Shown here one piece after another: positions 40,267 to 53,152 of a stretch of DNA of 64,000 bases; within the stretch, counting starts at the first letter, position 1, and every line of letters begins with the position of its first letter. The DNA is taken from assembly GCA_022703445.1 (NCBI GenBank), contig JAKLDR010000003.1, positions 36,407 to 100,406 on the forward strand. The letters are read 5' to 3'. The DNA is from Planctomycetota bacterium. Its GTDB lineage: Bacteria > Planctomycetota > SZUA-567 > JAKLDR01. The position numbers were made by a program, and so were the translations under genes. The notes beneath the pieces were generated by a model, which saw only the letters and a program-made list of their open reading frames with translations, searched no databases and was not told where the DNA came from.

Positions 40267-43200
40267 CTATGGCTGGGCGGTCTTCCTGTCCAACACCTCT
40301 CGGATCTTCGCGGCCAGCGCCTCGGCCGTGAAAGGCTTGCCGATGAAGTCCACGCCGTCGGCCAGAATCCCGCGCTGAACTATGTGCTTCTCGGCGTGGC
40401 CGGACATGAACAGCACCCGCTTGACCTTGCCGCGGTCCTTGAGCATTTTGACCAGCGTGGGCCCGCTCACCCCGGGCAGGACCACGTCGGAGAGCAGCAG
40501 GTCGACCGGCCCCTCGCGCGCCTCGGCCTTGCGGATGGCGTCGCCCGCGGTCCTGCAGGGCAGCACCATGTACCCCAGCTCCTGGAGCTCGTCGGTCAGG
40601 AGCTGGCAGACGGAGGGCTCGTCCTCCAGGAGGAGGATGGTCTCGGACCCGCGCGGCGTGGCGGCCTTGGGTTCGTTCGGGGCGGCGTTGGTCGCCCCTC
40701 TCGCGTTCTCCGTCCCCTCGGCCGGGAAGTAGATGCTGAAGGTCGTGCCTCGCCCGGCCAGGCTGTCCACGCGGATGTGGCCGCCGCTCTGCTGAACGAT
40801 CCCGTATACCGAGGACAGCCCCAGGCCGGTGCCATCCCCGACCTGCTTGGTGGTGAAGAACGGCTCGAAGAGATGCTCGCGGGCCTCCGCGCTCAAGCCC
40901 GCCCCGGTGTCGGCGACGGCCAAGAGCGCGTAACGGCCCGGGGGAATGTCCCCGTGACCCCCGCTGGCGGCGGCCGGGATCCGGATGTTCGCCGTGCGGA
41001 TGATGAAGCGCCCCCCGGCGGGCATGGCGTCCCGGGCATTGGCGGCCAGGTTCATGATGACCTGGGCGATCTGGGTCGGGTCGGCCAGCACCGGCCAGGG
41101 GTCGGACTGGAGTTCGAAGGCCACGGCGATGTCCTCGCCCAGGACCGTGGGCAGCATCTTGCGCATTCCGTCCACGGTTTCGTTGAGATCCAACACCACC
41201 GGGTTGATGACCTGCTTGCGGCTGAAAGCCAGGAGCTGCCGGGTCAGGTTGACGGCCTGTTCGCCGGCCTTGGTCATCTGTTCGACGGCGGAACGATGCC
41301 CGGCGCCCAGCCCGCCGTCGCGCAGCACCCGCCGGCCGTAGCCGGTGACCACCGTCATCAGATTGTTGAAGTCGTGAGCCACGCCGCCGGCCAGCCGCCC
41401 CACAGCCTCCAACTTCTGGGAATGGGCCAGCTGCTCCGTGGCCTTCCTGAGCCCCGCCTCGGCCCGCTCGCGCTCGGCTATTTCCTCCCGGAGGGTGCCG
41501 ACCAGCCGCTCCAGCTCATTGGTGCGCTCACGAACCAGCTCCTCCAGGCGCTCCCGGTGCTGCTGGAGCGCCTGCTCCGCCCGCTGGCGTTGTATGGCGA
41601 TGGACACCAGGTCGGCCACCGCTTTCATGAGGGACAGCTCGTCGGCGGCAAAGCGCGGGCGCGTCCTGGTGCCGAACGACAGCGTGCCCAGCACCTCCCC
41701 CTGGGCCATCAGCGGGTGGCAGGCGTAGGCCTGGATGCCGTAGGACTTGACCAGTTCGGTGCGCGGGTCGGGCGTCTCCTGGATGTTCTCGGCCACGATG
41801 CGCTGGGCGCTCTGCGCCGCGCACCCGCAGACGGCCACGCCGTAGTCCAGCCACTGGATCTCGCGGGCCTCCTCCTCTGGGATGCCGGCGCAGGCGTTGA
41901 GGCGCAGCCGCCCGGAGGGTTTGTCGGCCAGGAAATTGAAGAAGGCCTGGCAGTCCAGGAAGGCCATGACCTCCCGGCAGAGGCCCTCCACCGTGGCCTG
42001 GGGGGAGCCGGCCTTGAGGAGCTCCCCGGCCGTCTTGGCCAGGACGTCGTTGCGCCAGTTGCTGCGGCGCAGGTTCTCCTCAGCCCGCTTGCGTTCGGAG
42101 ATGTCCATGCCCGTGGCGACGGCACCGCGCACCCGACCATGAGCATCGAAGAGCGGCACGGCGCTCATGAGCAGGGATAGCACACGCCCGTCCGGGAACC
42201 GCAGTTCGATCGTTTCGTTGGCCACCGGCCGGCCGGTGGCGGCCGCAACCTGTGCGGGCAGTTCCTCGGGTCTCAGCTCCACCCCGTCGCGGAACGCCTT
42301 GTAGGTAGTGGCCGCATCACCCGGCGAGGCACTGGCGGAGATGTTCGCGCCCCGCGGCACCCGCATTACCAGCGCGTCGGCATAGCTGTTGCCGGTGATC
42401 CGCAGACACCGGGGGTCGTGCGCAATCCACACGGCCACGGGAGCGGCGTCCAGCAGCGTCTGGACCTCCGCGGCGCGCAGTTCGGCCTCGGCCCGGGCTG
42501 AGGCCAGCGCCTCTTCGCCCCGCTTGCGCTCGGTGATGTCGAAGCACAGGCCGGACATGCGCACCGCTTTGCCGTTCCCGTCCCGGCTGGTTTCGCCGAC
42601 GGCACTGATCCAGCGCACTTCCCCCGAGGGCAGGACCACCCGGTACTCATTGTTGAGTCTGGTGCCATCGCGGATGGCGGCGTTCCCCCGCTCCTCTGCA
42701 GCCTGGCGGTCGTCCGGATGCATGATCTCGCGCCAGGTGTCGAAATCGGCCACCTTCCTGGACGGGTCCAGCCCGAACAGACGGTACAGCTCGGGAGACC
42801 AGTCCAGCCTGGCCGTGGCCAGGTCCCAGTCCCAGGCTCCGGCTCCCGCCGATTGCTGCGCGATTGCCAGTTTGCCGTGAGCGGCCTGCAGCGCCTGCTC
42901 GGCCCGCGCGCGCTCCGCTCGCGCGCGGAGCGCGGCGATCCCTTGGGACAGGTCGCCGGCCAGTTCAGCCAGCAGTCGGGTCTCGTCCTCCGAGAACGCA
43001 TCCGGTTCCTGCGAGTAGACGTTGATGGCTCCGAAGGCCTTGCCTCCCTCCAGGAGCGGCAGGACCACGGACGAAGCATAGCCGCGCCTGCGGGCATCCT
43101 CGCACCAGGGCGCAAAGGCCGGGTCGACGAGCATGTTCCGGCAGCCGGTCGGCCGGCCCGTGCGGATGGCCGTGCCCGTGGGGCCGCGGCCGCGCTCGGT

Positions 43201-44937
43201 GTCGGCCCAGGTGATCTGCAGGGTTGCGAGGTACCCCGCCTCCATACCGGCCCAGGCCACCGGCCGGACGGTCTTGGCCTCGTCGTCATCGGCGTAGCCG
43301 ATCCAAACCATGGCGTGGCCGCAGTCCTCGCTGACGATCCGGCAGACCTCCCTGAGGTACTGGCCCTCGTCCTCGGCGCGCAGCATGGCCTGATTGCTGT
43401 TGCTGATCGCCCGCAGGGCGCGGTTGAGCTTGCGGAGTTCGGCCTCATGGGCGTCGCGCTCGGCCAGCAACCGGGCCAGCTTGATGTTGCCGTAGCTCAG
43501 CTGCGAGATCATCCGGGCCAGCTTCAGGAAGAAGCGCATGCCCGTTTCCACCGCCTCACGGCTCAAGCGCGGCACCCGGTCGAGCGCGGCCAGGTAGCCT
43601 GCCTCGTCGAACCCGTAGCGCCGGGACTGCGATCTGAAGAGCTCGCGATCGGGCTGTTCGTCATCGAAGAAGAACTGGCCCATGAACACGTTGCCGACGT
43701 GCCGCTCGCCGATCATGATCGGCGTCGAGACGTCCCACATGTGGTTCTTGCACTTGTAGAGCTTGAACTCTCCCGCCGGCACGTCCTTGGTCAACAACAG
43801 GTCGCTCTCGACGCAGTTGCGGCAGGTCTCGGGATGCACGCGGTGGAACTGCGTGCAGATGTCCTGCCAGCCCTCGCCGACCAGCACCTTGCCCTTGAGG
43901 TCGATGATGGCCATGGGCACGCCGACCAGCTTGTGGAACTCGTCCATCAGCGACTGGATGGCCCCGGCGTCGATGATGTCGGACAGCTCCAGATGGCCAA
44001 CATCGCCCTCGGGGGTCAGGATGCTCTCGAGTTTGCGGCGGACACGCTCCTCGCTCTCCCGCAGGGCCTCCTGCGCGCGGCGCTTGTCGGTGGCGTCGTG
44101 GAAGACCAGCACCGCGCCGGTCACGACGCCGGCCGCGTCGCGAATGGGGGCGGCGCTGTCCTCGATGGGCACCTGGCGGCCGTCGCGGGAAATCAGAGCG
44201 GTGTGGTTGGCCAGGGCGATTACCTTGCCCTCACGGAGCACGCGGGTGAAGACGTCTTCGCCAGGCGCCCCGGTCTGCTCGTCGACAATCCGGAACACCT
44301 CCTGCGCCGGCCGGCCGATGGCCTCCGCCTCGGGCCAGCCGGTCAGTTCCGAGGCGCTCGGGTTGATGAACGCGATCTTCCCGGAGGAATCGGCCGCCAG
44401 CACGGCATCGCCGATGCTGACCAGCGTGACCCGCAGCCATTCGCGCTGCTGAGCGAGCGCCTCCCGGCTCTCGCGCAGCGCCGCTTCGCGGTCGTAGGCC
44501 GCCGCCTTGGTCCGGTCGCGCCGGTAGAGCGCGGCGACGGCGCTCATGAACAGGCCCATGCCGGCGAAGATGACCAGCCCCAGGCGTTCGACGGGTGACT
44601 CGACGGCCAGCCCTTCCGGAGGAAGGATCCACAGCGCCGTGGCCAGCATGGACAGGGCGGTGGCCAGCAGGCCCGGCCAGAAACCGGCCAGCAGCGCCGC
44701 GGCCATGACCATGGGATAGAACGTGATGTAGGTGGGCAGTCCGGGGCCGACCCAGGCGGTCAGCGCCAGCCGCAGGCCCAGCCCAGCCGCCGCCGCCGCC
44801 GCCGCCAGGCCGAAGCGCCACGCCCACCCGAGCGGCGCCTGCGGCCGGAGGCCCGCCGGGAACGGAGCGATCAGCCCGATCCATCGGCTCAGGACGTTCT
44901 GGTCGGACGATCCGGGTGCTTCTGAGTCAGGCGTCAT
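40267..44937 (-). CDS. Hybrid sensor kinase: TM sensor - PAS - PocR - GAF - PAS - PAS - GAF - HisKA - HATPase - REC
   Basis: H-box GGVAHDFNNLM, N-box NLAANARDAM, GTGLGL; PocR-like WQDICTQFHR..HPET..NC; REC DLLLSDVVLP. Confidence 0.9.
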   Translation of the reverse strand: MTPDSEAPGSSDQNVLSRWIGLIAPFPAGLRPQAPLGWAWRFGLAAAAAAAGLGLRLALTAWVGPGLPTYITFYPMVMAAALLAGFWPGLLATALSMLATALWILPPEGLAVESPVERLGLVIFAGMGLFMSAVAALYRRDRTKAAAYDREAALRESREALAQQREWLRVTLVSIGDAVLAADSSGKIAFINPSASELTGWPEAEAIGRPAQEVFRIVDEQTGAPGEDVFTRVLREGKVIALANHTALISRDGRQVPIEDSAAPIRDAAGVVTGAVLVFHDATDKRRAQEALRESEERVRRKLESILTPEGDVGHLELSDIIDAGAIQSLMDEFHKLVGVPMAIIDLKGKVLVGEGWQDICTQFHRVHPETCRNCVESDLLLTKDVPAGEFKLYKCKNHMWDVSTPIMIGERHVGNVFMGQFFFDDEQPDRELFRSQSRRYGFDEAGYLAALDRVPRLSREAVETGMRFFLKLARMISQLSYGNIKLARLLAERDAHEAELRKLNRALRAISNSNQAMLRAEDEGQYLREVCRIVSEDCGHAMVWIGYADDDEAKTVRPVAWAGMEAGYLATLQITWADTERGRGPTGTAIRTGRPTGCRNMLVDPAFAPWCEDARRRGYASSVVLPLLEGGKAFGAINVYSQEPDAFSEDETRLLAELAGDLSQGIAALRARAERARAEQALQAAHGKLAIAQQSAGAGAWDWDLATARLDWSPELYRLFGLDPSRKVADFDTWREIMHPDDRQAAEERGNAAIRDGTRLNNEYRVVLPSGEVRWISAVGETSRDGNGKAVRMSGLCFDITERKRGEEALASARAEAELRAAEVQTLLDAAPVAVWIAHDPRCLRITGNSYADALVMRVPRGANISASASPGDAATTYKAFRDGVELRPEELPAQVAAATGRPVANETIELRFPDGRVLSLLMSAVPLFDAHGRVRGAVATGMDISERKRAEENLRRSNWRNDVLAKTAGELLKAGSPQATVEGLCREVMAFLDCQAFFNFLADKPSGRLRLNACAGIPEEEAREIQWLDYGVAVCGCAAQSAQRIVAENIQETPDPRTELVKSYGIQAYACHPLMAQGEVLGTLSFGTRTRPRFAADELSLMKAVADLVSIAIQRQRAEQALQQHRERLEELVRERTNELERLVGTLREEIAERERAEAGLRKATEQLAHSQKLEAVGRLAGGVAHDFNNLMTVVTGYGRRVLRDGGLGAGHRSAVEQMTKAGEQAVNLTRQLLAFSRKQVINPVVLDLNETVDGMRKMLPTVLGEDIAVAFELQSDPWPVLADPTQIAQVIMNLAANARDAMPAGGRFIIRTANIRIPAAASGGHGDIPPGRYALLAVADTGAGLSAEAREHLFEPFFTTKQVGDGTGLGLSSVYGIVQQSGGHIRVDSLAGRGTTFSIYFPAEGTENARGATNAAPNEPKAATPRGSETILLLEDEPSVCQLLTDELQELGYMVLPCRTAGDAIRKAEAREGPVDLLLSDVVLPGVSGPTLVKMLKDRGKVKRVLFMSGHAEKHIVQRGILADGVDFIGKPFTAEALAAKIREVLDRKTAQP

Positions 44938-45032: not shown

Positions 45033-45608
45033 TCAGGCCCGGAGACCGTTGGCCGTGGCGTAGCCGGCCAGCTGTCTCTTGAGCATCTGCCGGCCCCGGA
45101 AGATCCGGCTCATGACCGTGCCTATCGGACACCGCAGGGCACGGGCGATTTCCGCATAGCTCAGATCCTCCACTGCGGAAAGCAGCAGCGGGATGCGGAA
45201 GTCCGCCGGAATTGATGCCACCGCCCTGCTGACCTCGTCATCCAGGCCCTCCGAGAAGGAGCGGCCTCCGTCGGGGAGGGAGTCGCCCTCACCCGTACCC
45301 ATGAAGGGCTGCACGTCCTCGTAGCGGACGTTCTCAAACCTGGCGGAGCAGCGGCTGAAGCGGTCCACATTGAGGTTCGAAAGGATCTTGAGCAGCCAGG
45401 CCTTGCAGTTGGTGTCCGCCCTGAACCGGTGGAAGGCCCGGAAGGCCCGATAGTAGGCCTCCTGCACCAGATCGTCGGCATCGTGGTCGTTGCGGGTCAT
45501 GTAGCGCGCCACCCGATACACCGAGTCGAGATGCGGCAGCGCAATCCTCTCGAAATCTGTCTTGGCATCCGACTTCTCCGGGGCTTCCTTCACGATCGCT
45601 CTGATCAC
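45033..45608 (-). CDS. ECF RNA polymerase sigma factor
   Basis: DADDLVQEAYYRAF, AWLLKIL, SYAEIARALRCPIGTVMSRIFRGR; GTG 45608 with AAGGAG. Confidence 0.88.
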   Translation of the reverse strand: MIRAIVKEAPEKSDAKTDFERIALPHLDSVYRVARYMTRNDHDADDLVQEAYYRAFRAFHRFRADTNCKAWLLKILSNLNVDRFSRCSARFENVRYEDVQPFMGTGEGDSLPDGGRSFSEGLDDEVSRAVASIPADFRIPLLLSAVEDLSYAEIARALRCPIGTVMSRIFRGRQMLKRQLAGYATANGLRA

Positions 45609-45653
45609 CGGCAGCTCCTTTCGTCGTTTTCCCTTATTGGCGATGGGCCATTG

Positions 45654-45669
45654 AGCAACGCTCATGCCA
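45654..45669 (-). promoter_or_regulatory. sigma54 (-24/-12) promoter
   Basis: TGGCATG-AGCG-TTGCT on the minus strand. Confidence 0.75.
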
Positions 45670-45798
45670 CCTGCGTCGACCGCCAGCGCCATAGCGTTTG
45701 GCTCTGAACCGGGGCTACAGTCGACTTGCCCGGCATAGCCGATTGCGATGGTCGGGTGGGTGGACCATAGCGTTTGGCTGCGGTCACGGCATGGTCGG

Positions 45799-47979
45799 CT
45801 ATCGGCTGCAGACCGAGCGGACCTCCTCCATGGTGGTGTGGCCGGCCAGGTGCTTCTCGATCCCATCCTGCTTGAGGGTGCGCATGCCCTGGCTTGCGGC
45901 CACCTTGCGGATCTCCGCGGCGCTGGCCTGGCGGCAGACCAGCTCCTTGATCTCGTCGGTGGCCACCAGCAGTTCGTGCACCGCCATGCGCCCGCGGTAG
46001 CCCAGGTCTCCGCACTCCGGACAGCCGCCGGGACGCGCGGAGCAGACCGGCCGGGCCGGCGGAAAGCCCAGCGCGTCGAAGGCCTCGTCGGCCCGGTATT
46101 CCTGGCGAAGGGCCCCCAGCCGCCCGGCGGTCAGCGGCCCGGCCAGGCGGCAGCGCCGACAGAGGGTGCGCACCAACCGCTGAGCGAGCACCCCCAGGAG
46201 CGCATCCGAGAAGGAGTAGGGATCCAGGCCCAGATTCAGAAGCCGCACCACGGTCTCCGGCGCGCTGTTGGTGTGCAGGGTGGAGAACACCAGGTGCCCG
46301 GTGAGGCTGGACTCCACGGCGATGCCGGCGGTCTCCCGGTCGCGCATCTCCCCGATCATGATCACATCCGGGTCGGCGCGCAGGAAGGAGCGCAGCGCCG
46401 AGGCGAAGGTCACGCCCGCCTTGGGATTGACCTGCACCTGGCGCAGGCCAGGCTGGCTGATCTCCACCGGATCCTCCACCGTGAGTATCTTGACGTCGTC
46501 CCGGCTGATCTGGGCCAGGGCGCTGTGCAGCGTGGTGGTCTTGCCCGAGCCGGTCGGCCCCACGCACAGGACGATCCCGTAGGGCTGGTGGATGAGTCGC
46601 AGGAAGGCCTCGCGGTTCGCAGCGGACAGGGCCAACTCGTCGATGGGCCGGGCCTGGGCGGCCGCCAGGAGGCGCAGCACGGCGTCCTCGGCGCCCGCGA
46701 CCGTGGGATAGGTCTCCACCCGGATGTCCAGGTCCAGCTTGGCCCAACGCCGGAACTTGATCTTGCCGGACTGCGGCTTGCGCCGTTCGGCGATGTCCAG
46801 GTCGGCCATGATCTTGAGCCTGGAAATCAGGGCCTTGCCGTGCTTACGGGGCAGGCTCCCCGTCCGACGCATGATCCCGTCGACCCGGTAGCGCACCGCG
46901 CCATCGCCCTGCACGGCGGGTTCGAAATGGATGTCCGAGGCGCCGAGGGCGTGGGCTTCCTCGATCCGCTGGTTGACCAGCCGGGCGACCTCGCTGTCGT
47001 CCTCCAGGATGGAACGGTCCTCCTCCTCCTGGAGCGATGCCAGCTGCTCGGCGGACAGGCTGTCGACCAGATCGCCGGTGCCGGCGTCGTCCCGGGCGGG
47101 CTCCACCCCGGCCAGCCGGTCGAGGGCCGCAAGGATGTCCTCGGCCAGGGCCACGCGGCACTCCAGGGCCCCGCCGTCCAGCAGCGACCGGACGTGGTCG
47201 CGGGCGACAACGTCCTTGGGGTTGGCCATGGCCACCACGGTCTTCCAGCCAACGGTTGCCACCGGCACGCTCAGTGTGGACCGGAGCTGGTCGATGTGTT
47301 CCAGCACGGCCTGGCGGGGCGGTTCCGGCGGACTGGAGAAATCGTGGGCGGCGCAGCCGAAGAAGTCCTCCAGGCTGGCCAGCAGCTCAGCCTTGGGGAC
47401 CCCGTAGGCCCCGAGCAGGACCTGGTCGGCGGAGATGCCCTCCTCCTTGGCCACGCCCATGGCCATCTCCACCTGCCGCTCGGTGAGCACTCCGCGGTCG
47501 ATCAGACCCTGATGGCGGCTGCGGCGCCGGCCGAAGTCATCGATGCGATGGCTGTGGGCCTCGGTGGCGCTGCCAAGCTCGCTGAGGATCTTCGCGGCGG
47601 GCCCGGAGGGGGCGACGAAGTGCTCGAACAGCCGCGCCTCGATCATGAAGGTCTCGATCTCCTGGGCCATGGCCAGGGCCCGGAGCGCCGAGACCCCGTT
47701 GGCGTCCACGTCCTCCAGGCGGGAGCTGGTCTGCTCGACGGCCCGCAACACCAGGACGGTCAGCCGCCCGACATTGGCCGCGGTCAGCGCCTGCTCGTCG
47801 GCAATGGTCCGGAGCTGGCGGAGCAGCCTGCCGTGGCCCGCCTCTTCGGCGGCCAGCCGATCCCAGAACTCGCGCTGGCCGGAAAGCTTGGTGGCGAAGA
47901 TCTCGTAGAGCCGCTGGATCGCCTCCTCGTGGGCGGCGAGCAGCTCGATCAGCCGCAGGACTTCAGCGTTGCCTGGCAT
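45799..47979 (-). CDS. GspE/PilB-family ATPase with N-terminal ferritin/rubrerythrin-like domain
   Basis: GPTGSGKTT, TVEDPVE, RADPDVIMIGEMRD, GHLVFSTLHTN, CxxC..CxxC; N-terminal EExxH and ExxH helices. Confidence 0.88.
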   Translation of the reverse strand: MPGNAEVLRLIELLAAHEEAIQRLYEIFATKLSGQREFWDRLAAEEAGHGRLLRQLRTIADEQALTAANVGRLTVLVLRAVEQTSSRLEDVDANGVSALRALAMAQEIETFMIEARLFEHFVAPSGPAAKILSELGSATEAHSHRIDDFGRRRSRHQGLIDRGVLTERQVEMAMGVAKEEGISADQVLLGAYGVPKAELLASLEDFFGCAAHDFSSPPEPPRQAVLEHIDQLRSTLSVPVATVGWKTVVAMANPKDVVARDHVRSLLDGGALECRVALAEDILAALDRLAGVEPARDDAGTGDLVDSLSAEQLASLQEEEDRSILEDDSEVARLVNQRIEEAHALGASDIHFEPAVQGDGAVRYRVDGIMRRTGSLPRKHGKALISRLKIMADLDIAERRKPQSGKIKFRRWAKLDLDIRVETYPTVAGAEDAVLRLLAAAQARPIDELALSAANREAFLRLIHQPYGIVLCVGPTGSGKTTTLHSALAQISRDDVKILTVEDPVEISQPGLRQVQVNPKAGVTFASALRSFLRADPDVIMIGEMRDRETAGIAVESSLTGHLVFSTLHTNSAPETVVRLLNLGLDPYSFSDALLGVLAQRLVRTLCRRCRLAGPLTAGRLGALRQEYRADEAFDALGFPPARPVCSARPGGCPECGDLGYRGRMAVHELLVATDEIKELVCRQASAAEIRKVAASQGMRTLKQDGIEKHLAGHTTMEEVRSVCSR

Positions 47980-49432: not shown

Positions 49433-49448
49433 AGCAAGGCTCGTGCCA
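49433..49448 (-). promoter_or_regulatory. sigma54 (-24/-12) promoter
   Basis: TGGCACG-AGCC-TTGCT on the minus strand, full consensus. Confidence 0.85.
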
Positions 49449-49609: not shown

Positions 49610-50380
49610 GTGGACCAGGCCATAGTGAACAGCGGCGACACGGCGGCGAAATTCGCTGGACCCCGGCGGCGGGAGCGCGATGTGCAGGCCCCTGGCCGGG
49701 AGCAGGCTCTGGTGCTTAGCGAGCTGGCCTCCAGCCTGGCCCACGAGATGAAGAACCCCCTGGCGGGCATGATGCTTTCGGCCGGCCGCCTGGAGCGGGC
49801 GCTGCACCAAGACGAGAAGCTCGGGCTCATCGCCGGATCCCTGTGCGCGTCCATCCGCGCCCTGTCCGATACCGTGGACCGCATAACCGGGGCGATGGGC
49901 CAGCCGGAGCCGAACCTGGAACCGATGGATCTCAACCGGGCCATAGAGGATGCGGCCGGGGTCATCGAGCGCCAGGCCGAGGCCCAGGGGATCAGGATCG
50001 TCCGGGCGCTGGCCCCGGGAATCCCCGCGGTCCGCGGTGACCCGGCGCTGCTCGGGTGTGCGCTCCGGAACATCCTGGCCAACGCCGTCGAGGCCATGCC
50101 CTCCGGGGGCGTCCTGCGCCTGGAGTCGCGGGCCACGCCGGAGGGCGGGGCCGAGGCGCTCGTCGCGGACAGCGGTCCGGGCGTGCCTCCCGAGCTGGCC
50201 GCCAATCCCTTCAAGCCGTTCCGCTCCACCAAGCCGGGCCGGGCCGGGCTGGGGCTGAGCTTGGTGCGCCGGGTGCTGGAGCTGCACGGCGGCGAGGCCG
50301 GGCTGCGCCCGGGCGCGGGCGGCGGGACCGAGGCGGTGCTCGCGTTCCCCGCGGCCGGAGAGGGCGGTCGACCGGCATGA
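49610..50380 (+). CDS. Histidine kinase (HisKA + HATPase) without an evident sensor domain
   Basis: LAHEMKNPLAGM, NILANAVEAM, DSGPGV, GLGLSLV. Confidence 0.88.
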   Translation: MDQAIVNSGDTAAKFAGPRRRERDVQAPGREQALVLSELASSLAHEMKNPLAGMMLSAGRLERALHQDEKLGLIAGSLCASIRALSDTVDRITGAMGQPEPNLEPMDLNRAIEDAAGVIERQAEAQGIRIVRALAPGIPAVRGDPALLGCALRNILANAVEAMPSGGVLRLESRATPEGGAEALVADSGPGVPPELAANPFKPFRSTKPGRAGLGLSLVRRVLELHGGEAGLRPGAGGGTEAVLAFPAAGEGGRPA

Positions 50381-51735
50381 GGACTCCGCCCAGGATCCTG
50401 GTCATCGAGGACGACACCGACGTCCGCGAGCAGTTGCTGGCCACCTTCCGCGACGAGGGCTACGAAGTCACGGCCTGCGGCACGGTCCGGGAGGGCAAGG
50501 CCCTCCTGAAGAGCACCGGCTTCGCCCTGGTGACCACCGACCTGCGCCTGCCCGACGCCAGCGGCCTGGAGGTGGTGCGGCACATCCAGGCCTCCTGCCC
50601 GGACTGTCCGGTCCTGGTGCTCACCGCCTTCGCCAGCGTCGACTCGGCGGTCGAGGCCATGCGCCACGGGGCGTTTCACTACCTGGCCAAGCCCTTCTCG
50701 GTGAACGGCCTGTTGGTCGAGGTCGAGCGGGCCCTGGAGCACGCGCGGCTGCTCCGCGAGCGGAGCCAGCTCCGGGAGCGGCTCTCGGCCGAGAGCGGCC
50801 TGGGCCGCATCCTGGGCGGCAGTCCGGCCATCGAGTCGGTGCGCGGGCTGATCCGCGAGGTGGCCAGGACCTCCACCACCGTGCTGATCACCGGCGAGAC
50901 CGGGACCGGCAAGGAACTGGTGGCCAACGCCCTGCACTACGAGAGCCCCCGGGCCACCGGTCCGCTGGTCAAGCTGAACTGCGCTGCGCTCACCGAGACC
51001 CTGCTGGAGTCGGAGCTCTTCGGTCACGAGAAGGGCGCCTTTACCGGGGCCGAGCGCTCCCGTGCGGGCCGGTTCGAGCGGGCCGACGGCGGGACCCTGT
51101 TCCTGGACGAGATATCGGAGATGGGCCCCCACGTCCAGGCCAAGCTGCTGCGGGTGCTCCAGGGCGAGGCTTTCGAGCGGGTGGGCGGCGACCAGCCGCT
51201 GCGGCCGGACGTCCGGTTGGTGGCCGCCACCAACCGTGATCCGCAGCAGGCGGTCGCGGAGGGCAAGCTGCGCCAGGACCTGTTCTTCCGGCTGAACATC
51301 GTCTGCGTCGAAGTCCCCCCGCTCCGGAAGCGGCCCGAGGACATCCCGCTGCTGGCCAGGCACTTTCTGGGGATCTTCGCGGACCGGTTCGGCAGAGGCC
51401 AGGCCTCCCTGGACGACGAGGCGCTCAACGCCCTGTGCGCCTACCCGTGGCCCGGGAACGTCCGGGAGCTGGAGAACTGCATCGAACGGGCGGTGATCGT
51501 GGCGCAGGACGGCACCGTGCGCCGGCGGAACCTCCCCGCGCCCATCAGCGGGATCGAAGCAGAGCCGCCCGGCGCGCCCCTGAACCTCGAAGCCCTGGAG
51601 AAGCGGGCCATCCTGCAGGCCCTGCGCGAAACGGGCGGCAACAAGTCCCAGGCCGCCGCCAAGTTGGGGATCTTCCCCTCTTCCCTTTATAAGAAGATGA
51701 AACGCTTTGACATACCTCTGCAGCCTGAACCGTAG
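50377..51735 (+). CDS. sigma54-dependent response regulator (NtrC/AtoC type)
   Basis: REC domain; GETGTGKE; GAFTGA; FLDEI; WPGNVRELEN; Fis-type HTH. Confidence 0.95.
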   Translation: MRTPPRILVIEDDTDVREQLLATFRDEGYEVTACGTVREGKALLKSTGFALVTTDLRLPDASGLEVVRHIQASCPDCPVLVLTAFASVDSAVEAMRHGAFHYLAKPFSVNGLLVEVERALEHARLLRERSQLRERLSAESGLGRILGGSPAIESVRGLIREVARTSTTVLITGETGTGKELVANALHYESPRATGPLVKLNCAALTETLLESELFGHEKGAFTGAERSRAGRFERADGGTLFLDEISEMGPHVQAKLLRVLQGEAFERVGGDQPLRPDVRLVAATNRDPQQAVAEGKLRQDLFFRLNIVCVEVPPLRKRPEDIPLLARHFLGIFADRFGRGQASLDDEALNALCAYPWPGNVRELENCIERAVIVAQDGTVRRRNLPAPISGIEAEPPGAPLNLEALEKRAILQALRETGGNKSQAAAKLGIFPSSLYKKMKRFDIPLQPEP

Positions 51736-51823: not shown

Positions 51824-51839
51824 TGGCATGGAGCTTGCG
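51824..51839 (+). promoter_or_regulatory. sigma54 (-24/-12) promoter
   Basis: TGGCATG-GAGC-TTGCG. Confidence 0.75.
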
Positions 51840-51883: not shown

Positions 51884-52264
51884 GTGGCGAAGATCCTGGT
51901 GCTCGACGATGAGAGTCAGTGGCTGGAGCTGGTTCGGGACAAGCTCCTCGCCATGGGCCACGAGGTGCGGACCACGGCCGACTGCCTGGACGCCCTCAGA
52001 CAGATCGAGGCCGACCTTCCCGACCTGGCAATCATAGACCTACGCATGCCGGTCAGCGGGAGCACCATGCTCCGAGCGATGCGCGAGGACTGGCCGGAGC
52101 TACCGGTGGTGATGCACACCGTCTACAGCGGCTATCGCGACGCCCCCAGTCTCAATGGCATCGCCGGCTTCGCAGTCAAGAACCCGGAGCTGACCGAGCT
52201 GATCAAGGTGGTGGAGAACGTGCTGGCGCAGAAGCAGCGCTGCGCCGAGACGTCTTCGACTTGA
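51884..52264 (+). CDS. Single-domain response regulator
   Basis: KILVLDDE, DLAIIDLRMP; AAGGAGG before GTG. Confidence 0.88.
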   Translation: MAKILVLDDESQWLELVRDKLLAMGHEVRTTADCLDALRQIEADLPDLAIIDLRMPVSGSTMLRAMREDWPELPVVMHTVYSGYRDAPSLNGIAGFAVKNPELTELIKVVENVLAQKQRCAETSST

Positions 52265-52358
52265 TGCCCTGGAGGTTGGACGCGACTGCCTGGCCATCGC
52301 GATGCGCGCACCAGTGGCCATGCGGCCCATTGGGGAGCTCGCACGAAGGGAGGATCCG

Positions 52359-52550
52359 ATGAAGGTCCTGGTCGACGCCAACCTCTGCGAGGGATGCGGC
52401 CCGTGCGAAGAGGTCTGCCCGGAGGTGTTCCGGATAGTCGACAACCTCGCCCGGGTCATAGCCGATCCGGTGCCCCCCGAGTCCGAAGGGGCCTGCCGTC
52501 AGGCGGTCGAGAGCTGTCCGACCAACGCCATATCCGTTGTGGAAGAGTAG
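52359..52550 (+). CDS. Ferredoxin (single cluster type)
   Basis: CEGCGPCEEVCPEVF...CPTNAI; GGGAGG RBS. Confidence 0.9.
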   Translation: MKVLVDANLCEGCGPCEEVCPEVFRIVDNLARVIADPVPPESEGACRQAVESCPTNAISVVEE

Positions 52551-52585
52551 GATCACATCGAGCCGAAGAGGCGTCGGGACCAAAC

Positions 52586-53152
52586 ATGCAGGTAATTGGC
52601 CCGTTGATGATCGAGCACCGCCTGATCGGGCGCATGCTCGCGCTCGTGCGCCTCGAACTGGAGGGTGTCCGGCGCGGCCGACCGCTGAACCCCGGCTTCG
52701 TCCAGGCGGCGGTCGACTTCATCCGCGTCTATGCGGACCGGGTCCATCACGGCAAGGAGGAGGACCTTCTGTTCCGCGAACTGGCCCGGAAGAGCCTGAC
52801 GCCGCCTGACCGGGCGGCGATGGATGAGCTGGTCAGGGAGCACGCCTGGGCGCGCAAGCGCGCCGGAGAACTGGCCGGCGCCTCCGAGCGGCTGGCCGGG
52901 GGTGGTTCGGGGGCTGCCGACGATATCGCCAAGGCTCTCCTGGACCTGGTCGAGTTCTACCCGAAGCACATCGAACGCGAGGACCGAAGGTTCTTCCCCG
53001 CTGCCACGGCGTACCTCTCCGAGCAGGAGCAGCAGGCCATGCTCCGGGAGTTTGCGGATTTCGACCGCGGTCTGATCCACGAGATATACAGGGGGCTGGT
53101 CGCCAGCCTCGAGATGGCCCGATTGCCGGGGCAAGAGCCGGAATCAGATTAG
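52586..53152 (+). CDS. Hemerythrin/HHE cation-binding domain protein
   Basis: EHRLI, HHGKEEDLLF, EHAWAR, HIEREDRRFFP. Confidence 0.88.
   Translation: MQVIGPLMIEHRLIGRMLALVRLELEGVRRGRPLNPGFVQAAVDFIRVYADRVHHGKEEDLLFRELARKSLTPPDRAAMDELVREHAWARKRAGELAGASERLAGGGSGAADDIAKALLDLVEFYPKHIEREDRRFFPAATAYLSEQEQQAMLREFADFDRGLIHEIYRGLVASLEMARLPGQEPESD

Follow-up and report, generated by a model that had tools for sequence, protein, structure and literature searches.

A ferritin-like four-helix bundle fused to a PilB/GspE-type traffic ATPase in a Planctomycetota bacterium, a candidate metal or redox input domain

The window analysed here, a stretch of 64,000 nucleotides from a Planctomycetota bacterium (contig JAKLDR010000003.1, positions 36,407 to 100,406), encodes on its minus strand a 726-aa protein, P0001 (45799..47979; an open reading frame (ORF) of 2181 nt), in which a ferritin-like (erythrin/rubrerythrin-type) four-helix bundle precedes a PilB/GspE-type motor. 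The bundle (residues 1-150, 47530..47979) was delimited by homology and an AlphaFold2 (AF2) model. It is followed by an MshEN-like N1 domain (residues ~159-293, 47101..47505), recognised by Pfam, NCBIfam and AF2, and by a T2SSE region comprising N2 and the ATPase core (residues 326-720, 45820..47004), recognised by Pfam, NCBIfam and its motifs. An initial annotation, made from the sequence alone, had placed a ferritin/rubrerythrin-like di-iron domain at 47540-47979, which is the 5' portion of the P0001 ORF, and had proposed that it was fused to a GspE/PilB motor ATPase gated by iron, oxygen or peroxide. The fusion was confirmed as a single gene and proved recurrent. To the reading that the bundle is a regulatory metal or redox input domain on an orphan PilB-type motor linked to cyclic di-GMP (c-di-GMP), we assign a probability of about one half.

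Since the window has a GC content of ~70 %, at which long spurious ORFs are common, the frame of P0001 was tested by its GC content at codon positions. Third positions (GC3) were almost equally GC-rich in codons 1-155 (0.93) and in the remainder (0.91), and second positions displayed 0.45-0.46 in both parts; the N-terminal 150 codons are thus coding in the frame of P0001. The next in-frame ATG after M1 corresponds to M104, within the bundle, while in-frame CTG, GTG and TTG codons occur earlier. Public gene callers identically called the 726-aa product, and among separate assemblies in ENA and JGI, 11 contigs encoded a protein identical to P0001. Over-extension of the ORF in a GC-rich genome was therefore rejected on the grounds of GC3, conservation and independent gene calls. 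An assembly chimera was rejected because of the 11 contigs; a paralogous cassette and fusions in other lineages, described below, likewise spoke against the assembly artefact that the initial annotation had named as a possible refutation. We are highly confident that the architecture, an N-terminal ferritin-like bundle followed by an MshEN-like N1 and a PilB/GspE ATPase, is genuine. No account of a ferritin- or rubrerythrin-like domain on a PilB/GspE ATPase was found in the literature searched, just as no characterised example had been known at the outset. Public annotation of the fusion proteins mentions the ATPase only, those of Planctomycetota being assigned to the GspE/PulE family.

The bundle was identified through its family. 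An exhaustive phmmer search with residues 1-160 against 1.8 billion cluster representatives retrieved 877 matches at E<=1e-3 and 89 at E<=1e-10; most of the matches listed were stand-alone proteins of ~155 aa or tandem duplications of 310-370 aa. Scanned directly, the P0001 bundle remained below the gathering threshold of Pfam Rubrerythrin (13.4 vs 22.8 bits; E 0.1), but it is connected at E 1e-17 to 1e-10 with a family whose stand-alone members pass this threshold (P0005, 25.6 bits; P0026, 25.5 bits; P0008, 28.8 bits). An NCBIfam scan of the bundle gave nothing significant and phmmer comparison of the bundle alone with PDB sequences gave chance matches only. A word-indexed homolog search with region 1-160 returned solely the query, because its relatives are less than 50 % identical. 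Stand-alone homologs had no NCBIfam model either and bore only a faint resemblance to EncB and the MbfA erythrin domain; some of them carry the label 'rubrerythrin' in IMG. A profile built from 113 family members matched symerythrin (3qhb, E 4.8e-6), EncB (E 3e-4) and, over its full length, TM1526 (E 1e-3), as well as designed di-iron bundles.

One distant stand-alone member is encoded in the same genome (contig C212, locus L005, 5998-6495, plus strand; 26.5 bits with the Rubrerythrin model, 25 % identical to the P0001 bundle). Directly downstream lies a gene for the manganese-efflux protein MntP (L005:6630-7226, plus strand), and the two look like the erythrin-transporter fusion MbfA divided into separate genes.

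Structure prediction agreed with this assignment. A single-sequence AF2 run on residues 1-160 was unusable, with a predicted local distance difference test score (pLDDT) of 45, and the model based on the 113-sequence alignment was used instead; it reached a pLDDT of 95 and a predicted template-modelling score (pTM) of 0.88. Helices were predicted at residues 3-31, 33-63, 70-94, 98-114 and 127-161. Almost all of the top 50 Foldseek matches in the PDB were ferritin-like proteins, headed by symerythrin, MJ0754, aldehyde-deformylating oxygenase, a Dps-like protein, COQ7, bacterioferritin, ferritin and YciF. Profile, model and Foldseek all pointed to the same fold, and the objection that the domain might not be ferritin-like failed on family homology, AF2 and Foldseek alike. 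It is beyond reasonable doubt that residues 1-150 of P0001 are ferritin-like.

The four motifs noted initially were all present in the bundle: HEEAIQRLY (17-25), EEAGH (45-49), EIETFMIE (107-114) and TEAH (139-142). Across 113-122 family members, Y25, E46, H49, E109 and H142 were invariant, and E18, W39 and E114 were conserved in at least 90 %. The putative metal ligands are E18, E46, H49, E109, E114 and H142. E18-x6-Y25 forms the classic helix-A motif and E46-x-x-H49 that of helix B. The last of the four motifs, however, could not stand as a canonical one: E140 was not conserved in the family, and it is T139 that aligns with the glutamate of the helix-D ExxH motif in symerythrin and TM1526, so that helix D displays TxxH (T139-x-x-H142) instead of ExxH. 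Five of the six ligands of the canonical di-iron set E/ExxH/E/ExxH were found (E18, E46, H49, E109, H142), which leaves the set incomplete. E114 is a possible substitute for the absent helix-D glutamate. Judged by its residues, the variant site would be compatible with a di-metal centre having an open or water-bridged position.

The fusion is rare, being found in three of 61 related genomes, and it recurs in several lineages. A paralogous cassette was encountered in the same genome (contig C271), its bundle being 44-46 % identical to that of P0001. A genome of the same genus (G001) displayed one cassette, including the upstream PilZ-MshEN gene described below. A metagenome-assembled genome (MAG) of Syntrophaceae (L006) encoded a fusion of 733 aa and Planctomycetota MAGs encoded fusions of 731 and 734 aa. 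E18, Y25, E46, H49, E109, E114 and H142 were kept in fusions P0004, P0033, P0085, P0090 and L006 and in the paralog from the same genome, proteins that are just 29-47 % identical and are spread across phyla. In a tree of the bundles, fusions formed two well-supported clades on an unresolved backbone, which is compatible with a single origin. The ATPase cores of all fusions were closest to the query (58-68 % identity), non-fusion relatives reaching 51-56 %.

These data bear on the suggestion that the N-terminal extension is a relic, that is, a ferritin-like fold that binds nothing and has no role, or a segment that is not translated at all. Direct Pfam scanning misses the domain, a putative ribosome-binding site lies ~14 nt from the ATG and the architecture is rare, all of which would suit a relic. 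Retention of every ligand position at such low identity across phyla would not, nor would a GC3 of 0.93 matching the rest of the gene, a first in-frame ATG after M1 that falls inside the bundle, or the high confidence of the AF2 model. We consider a relic highly improbable.

The remainder of P0001 includes an intact ATPase, as had been stated initially. Pfam T2SSE matched residues 326-720 with 388.6 bits (cut-off 24.9; E 2.9e-116) and Pfam MshEN matched residues 221-293 with 28.2 bits (cut-off 23.1). All ATPase motifs were intact: Walker A (GPTGSGKT, 474-481), Asp box (VEDPVE, 501-506), Walker B (DPDVIMIGEMRD, 536-547), His box (GHLVFSTLHTN, 561-571) and two CxxC pairs (CRRC, 607-610; CPEC, 653-656). 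The alignment with the NCBIfam PilB model (TIGR02538) began at residue 159. Such ATPases normally begin with N1/MshEN, as stated initially, and the bundle here is placed ahead of that domain. P0001 missed the cut-offs of both the PilB equivalog TIGR02538 (464.3 vs 675.65 bits) and the GspE equivalog TIGR02533 (457.0 vs 630.25 bits) and therefore belongs to the superfamily without being a canonical member of either the PilB or the GspE type. A third paralog in the genome, of 906 aa (contig C112, 78907-81627, minus strand; equivalent to L093:4908-7628, minus strand), joins a PilZ-MshEN-PilZ module directly to the ATPase core and has neither an N1 of its own nor a ferritin-like domain. The ATPase cores of the three paralogs are 64-68 % identical to one another and 38-44 % identical to the other PilB/GspE proteins of the genome. 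From sequence comparison, P0001 is best explained as a member of a distinct MshE-like subfamily of PilB/GspE traffic ATPases.

Two features of N1 are relevant to regulation. Predicted helix D of the bundle runs unbroken (127-161) into the start of N1, and in the model this connector offers a plausible route for signal transmission. The c-di-GMP motif of MshEN domains is a tandem of the 24-residue pattern [RKPN]hGxxhhxx[GAS]hhxxxxhxxxhxx[QNKRYWST] (PMC5013675); it was absent, hydrophobic scaffold included, from the N1 of P0001 and of every fusion ATPase.

That motif was found in the product of the upstream gene. P0002 (48025..49392, minus strand; 455 aa from M35, the ORF being open back to 49494) is co-oriented with the ATPase gene and separated from it by 45 bp. 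Its PilZ domain displays the RRxxxR and DxSxxG motifs and is followed by an MshEN domain with the 53-residue tandem c-di-GMP arrangement (residues 216-268), of which the second motif is a full match and the first fails at position 1 only. The C-terminal region resembles a second PilZ domain by eye, Pfam finding no second PilZ. P0002 is, from these motifs, a probable c-di-GMP receptor. Over its whole length it can be aligned with the C112 ATPase (residues 51-469; 42 % identity, E 1e-114), and this Rosetta-stone relation between a fused and a separate arrangement argues that P0002 and P0001 act together. A PilZ-MshEN gene adjoins the fusion ATPase in the window, on C271, in G001 and in L095; none adjoins the fusions of Syntrophaceae and Planctomycetota.

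The position of the bundle was compared with that of other N-terminal extensions. Among the 80 nearest ATPase relatives in the genome collection, for which the open frame ahead of the equivalent of residue 159 was taken, 50 carried an extension of at least 135 aa, and these 50 are the basis of the counts. TPR repeats occupied the slot in 26 of them and GAF domains in 18. In most of the closest PilB-like relatives (L007-L057 and others), the extension comprised ~200-300 aa ahead of the MshEN domain; these relatives came mostly from Desulfobacterales and other Thermodesulfobacteriota, and one (L015) from Planctomycetota. GAF-PilB and TPR-PilB architectures seem common in those lineages. Nitrospira relatives displayed no N-terminal extension, and the one examined (L034) is surrounded by minor-pilin genes; the subfamily thus has at least one member located in a pilin cluster, which is consistent with a type IV pilus-like machine. 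As TPR, GAF and PilZ-type modules share the slot, the bundle occupies a position at which accessory modules were gained repeatedly, and for this reason it is most likely a regulatory input. With ferritin-like, TPR, GAF and PilZ-MshEN-PilZ modules all found in it, the slot looks like a site into which signals can be plugged. The shared slot, together with ligands that are invariant in every fusion, also strengthens the initial proposal of gating by iron, oxygen or peroxide.

The same slot can be read as a site for docking. The bundle would then be a docking or oligomerisation module that tethers the ATPase to a partner, be it the PilZ-MshEN-PilZ protein or another, or that pairs hexamers, any metal being purely structural. 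Protein-interaction repeats of the TPR type are the commonest occupants, every cassette in the lineage of the window has a dedicated partner gene beside it, and ferritin-like bundles commonly dimerise. Yet the strictly invariant positions of the bundle (Y25, E46, H49, E109, H142) are those of metal ligands and not surface residues, and the fusions of Syntrophaceae and Planctomycetota do without the adjoining gene. Docking as the role of the bundle is judged unlikely.

Less likely still is a catalytic bundle, a peroxidase or oxidase of the rubrerythrin/symerythrin type, or a ferroxidase, that would detoxify peroxide or handle iron locally at the motor. Its closest solved relatives are symerythrin, proteins of the rubrerythrin family and the ferroxidase cargo EncB, stand-alone members bear the IMG name mentioned above, and the distant homolog from the same genome adjoins a metal efflux pump. 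No rubredoxin-like Cys4 domain follows the bundle, the sole Cys4 motif being the zinc motif of the ATPase. Neither rubredoxin nor any other electron-transfer domain is thus available to an enzyme, the bridging helix-D glutamate is missing, the slot is occupied by regulatory modules in relatives, and no reason is apparent for coupling a peroxidase covalently to a traffic ATPase.

The gene pair is probably under dedicated transcriptional control. A sigma-54 -24/-12 box, TGGCACGAGCCTTGC (49434..49448, minus strand), precedes the PilZ-MshEN start codon by 42-56 nt; five matches to the sigma-54 pattern were found in the window, where 0.82 are expected by chance. A divergent pair of genes (49610..51735, plus strand) adjoins the cassette and encodes a histidine kinase (49610-50380) and an NtrC-type sigma-54 activator (50377-51735), which are the likely transcriptional regulator of the cassette. 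A divergent activator likewise flanks the paralog-type cassette in L095. No convincingly placed box was found upstream of the C112 gene or of L006, nor, as considered again below, upstream of the paralog cassettes on C271 and in L095, so that sigma-54 control appears specific to the copy in the window. Where the window has its sigma-54 box, the paralog-type cassettes share an operator-like inverted repeat, GAATATC-N4-(T)GGATATC with TAACAT after it, ahead of PilZ-MshEN (L004:10913-11142, upstream of the gene on C271; L095:5063-5250). The initial annotation had included neither the sigma-54 control nor the paralogous cassette and the link to the PilZ-MshEN-PilZ partner.

Downstream of the activator, genes for a single-domain response regulator, a 4Fe-4S ferredoxin (52302-52550) and a hemerythrin-domain protein (52586-53152) form a set on the plus strand (51884-53152), preceded by a second sigma-54 box (51824-51838). 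They represent a possible redox- or oxygen-related branch of the same local regulon, the redox flavour being circumstantial. Another sigma-54 box (45655-45669, minus strand) is located ~23 nt inside the called start (45692) of a gene for an extracytoplasmic function (ECF) sigma factor (45033-45692); if it is functional, the start codon of this gene must be further downstream than called. A hybrid histidine kinase of 1556 aa (40267-44937), encoded on the minus strand like the ATPase and the ECF sigma factor and downstream of both their genes, is composed of DUF4118, PAS, PocR, two GAF, PAS, HisKA/HATPase and receiver domains.

The machine served by the motor was searched for in the surroundings of the fusions. 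The absence of pilin and secretin genes from the window, noted initially, extends to the entire 141-kb contig; no match to PF00482 (T2SSF platform), PF00263 (secretin) or PF07963 (pilin N-methylation) was found on contigs C223, C271 and C112. The called genes flanking L006, L092, L094 and L095 included no platform, pilin or secretin gene, some ORFs (one in L006, several in the others) being without a Pfam match. Elsewhere, the genome has clusters of the type IV pilus and type II secretion types with their own ATPases (on C35 and C249) and several pilin clusters on contigs without an ATPase match, with C113, C50 and C276 as examples of such clusters. At L092 (2854-4314, minus strand), a fusion ATPase of Planctomycetota adjoins a PAS-HD-GYP phosphodiesterase, and at L094 (1056-6883, plus strand) the fusion ATPase stands beside a SpoIIE/STAS partner-switching set and a cyclic-nucleotide (cNMP)-gated channel; neither locus displays pilus genes.

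Several observations weigh against a metal or redox input to a pilus-type motor. Foldseek E-values were weak (6.8e-3 or worse, with TM-scores of 0.5-0.68), as is usual for helical bundles. The canonical helix-D glutamate position is a threonine in 86 % of the family and the candidate substitute, E114, is positioned at the end of helix C; because of this threonine the site may be mononuclear, may hold a different metal or may be redox-inactive. TPR repeats, the leading occupants of the slot, bind proteins and are no sensors, so that docking may be as much a function of this position as sensing. A convincingly placed sigma-54 box is missing upstream of the paralog cassettes (C271, L095), and in none of six contexts was a pilus, secretion or platform gene linked to the fusion.

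Taking these points into account, we still favour a regulatory input. P0001 would be a hexameric traffic ATPase of the PilB/GspE family that acquired an N-terminal ferritin-like bundle, and this bundle would most likely hold a di-metal site, probably of iron, formed by E18, E46-x-x-H49, E109, H142 and E114, with Thr139 replacing the bridging glutamate. The metal, redox, or oxygen or peroxide state of the site would change the bundle, and the change would pass along the connector between helix D and N1 to alter ATPase activity or partner binding. The motor would work with the co-transcribed PilZ-MshEN-PilZ protein, so that two signals converge on it. The pair would be transcribed from the sigma-54 promoter, probably under the adjacent NtrC-type activator, and the powered filament or secretion machine would be encoded elsewhere. 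The data establish the fold family, the conserved ligands, the genuine and recurrent fusion, the modular slot, the partner linkage and the promoter motif; what the site binds, which signal it reads, how a change would reach the ATPase and which machine is driven are inferences. A more specific version is put forward tentatively: the Thr-for-Glu erythrin bundle may be an unrecognised sensor through which iron, oxygen or peroxide gates a pilus-type motor that also takes c-di-GMP via a detachable PilZ-MshEN-PilZ subunit.

The timing of pilus assembly and protein secretion in bacteria is set by PilB/GspE motors, whose known inputs are mainly c-di-GMP, through MshEN and PilZ/FimX, and partner proteins. 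If the regulatory reading is true, a carboxylate-bridged metal bundle adds a metal, redox or oxygen input to such motors, and the more specific version would amount to a two-input switch for the assembly of surface filaments at oxic-anoxic boundaries. The system would also be compact and testable, consisting of one soluble protein and one partner. For a TxxH ferritin-like family of ~877 representatives without a curated model, the fusion provides the first functional hint.

Regulatory N-terminal domains on such motors are already known from the MshEN domain of Vibrio cholerae MshE (PMC5013675) and the GSPII domains of Thermus thermophilus PilF (PMC11731258). P0001 shares with MshE/PilB-type ATPases the order of N1 (MshEN fold), N2 and ATPase core after residue 159, including the tetracysteine motif, as well as probable N-terminal regulation and a link to c-di-GMP. 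It differs from them by the extra bundle ahead of N1, by an N1 without the c-di-GMP motif, by PilB and GspE scores below cut-off and by the lack of adjacent platform, pilin and secretin genes.

With erythrin-type domains (symerythrin 3qhb, TM1526 1vjx, rubrerythrin PF02915, MbfA NF045676), the bundle shares E-x6-Y in helix A, ExxH in helix B, a glutamate in helix C and a histidine in helix D, and the iron exporter MbfA is a precedent for an N-terminal erythrin domain fused to a different machine. The bundle of P0001 is distinguished by the helix-D threonine, by the extra E114 five residues past the helix-C ligand, by the absence of a rubredoxin domain and of a curated family, and by its fusion to a traffic ATPase.

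Separate c-di-GMP receptors acting on a motor are known from the PilB-PilZ-FimX system of Xanthomonas (PMC8389850), in which, as here, a PilB-type ATPase has a PilZ-containing protein encoded alongside it as its presumed binding partner. P0002 differs in being a PilZ-MshEN-PilZ protein with canonical binding motifs, and its counterpart is fused to the ATPase core in the C112 paralog. A borderline lead is provided by 3ezu, a GGDEF protein from Geobacter with an N-terminal helical bundle before its signalling output (profile E 6e-3; TMq 0.61 to the N-domain of P0001).

A likeness in concept is offered by the hemerythrin-type di-iron sensors DcrH and Bhr-DGC, reviewed in PMC9388753, in which a non-haem di-iron four-helix bundle is located N-terminal to an output, responds to oxygen or redox state and often belongs to c-di-GMP circuits. 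They differ in superfamily and ligands, hemerythrin being His-rich and ferritin-like bundles carboxylate-rich, and their outputs are a cyclase or a chemoreceptor, that of P0001 being a motor ATPase. N-terminal regulatory domains on these motors and di-iron sensor bundles of the unrelated hemerythrin family are therefore already known; what is new here, as far as the literature searched goes, is a ferritin-like bundle on a PilB/GspE motor.

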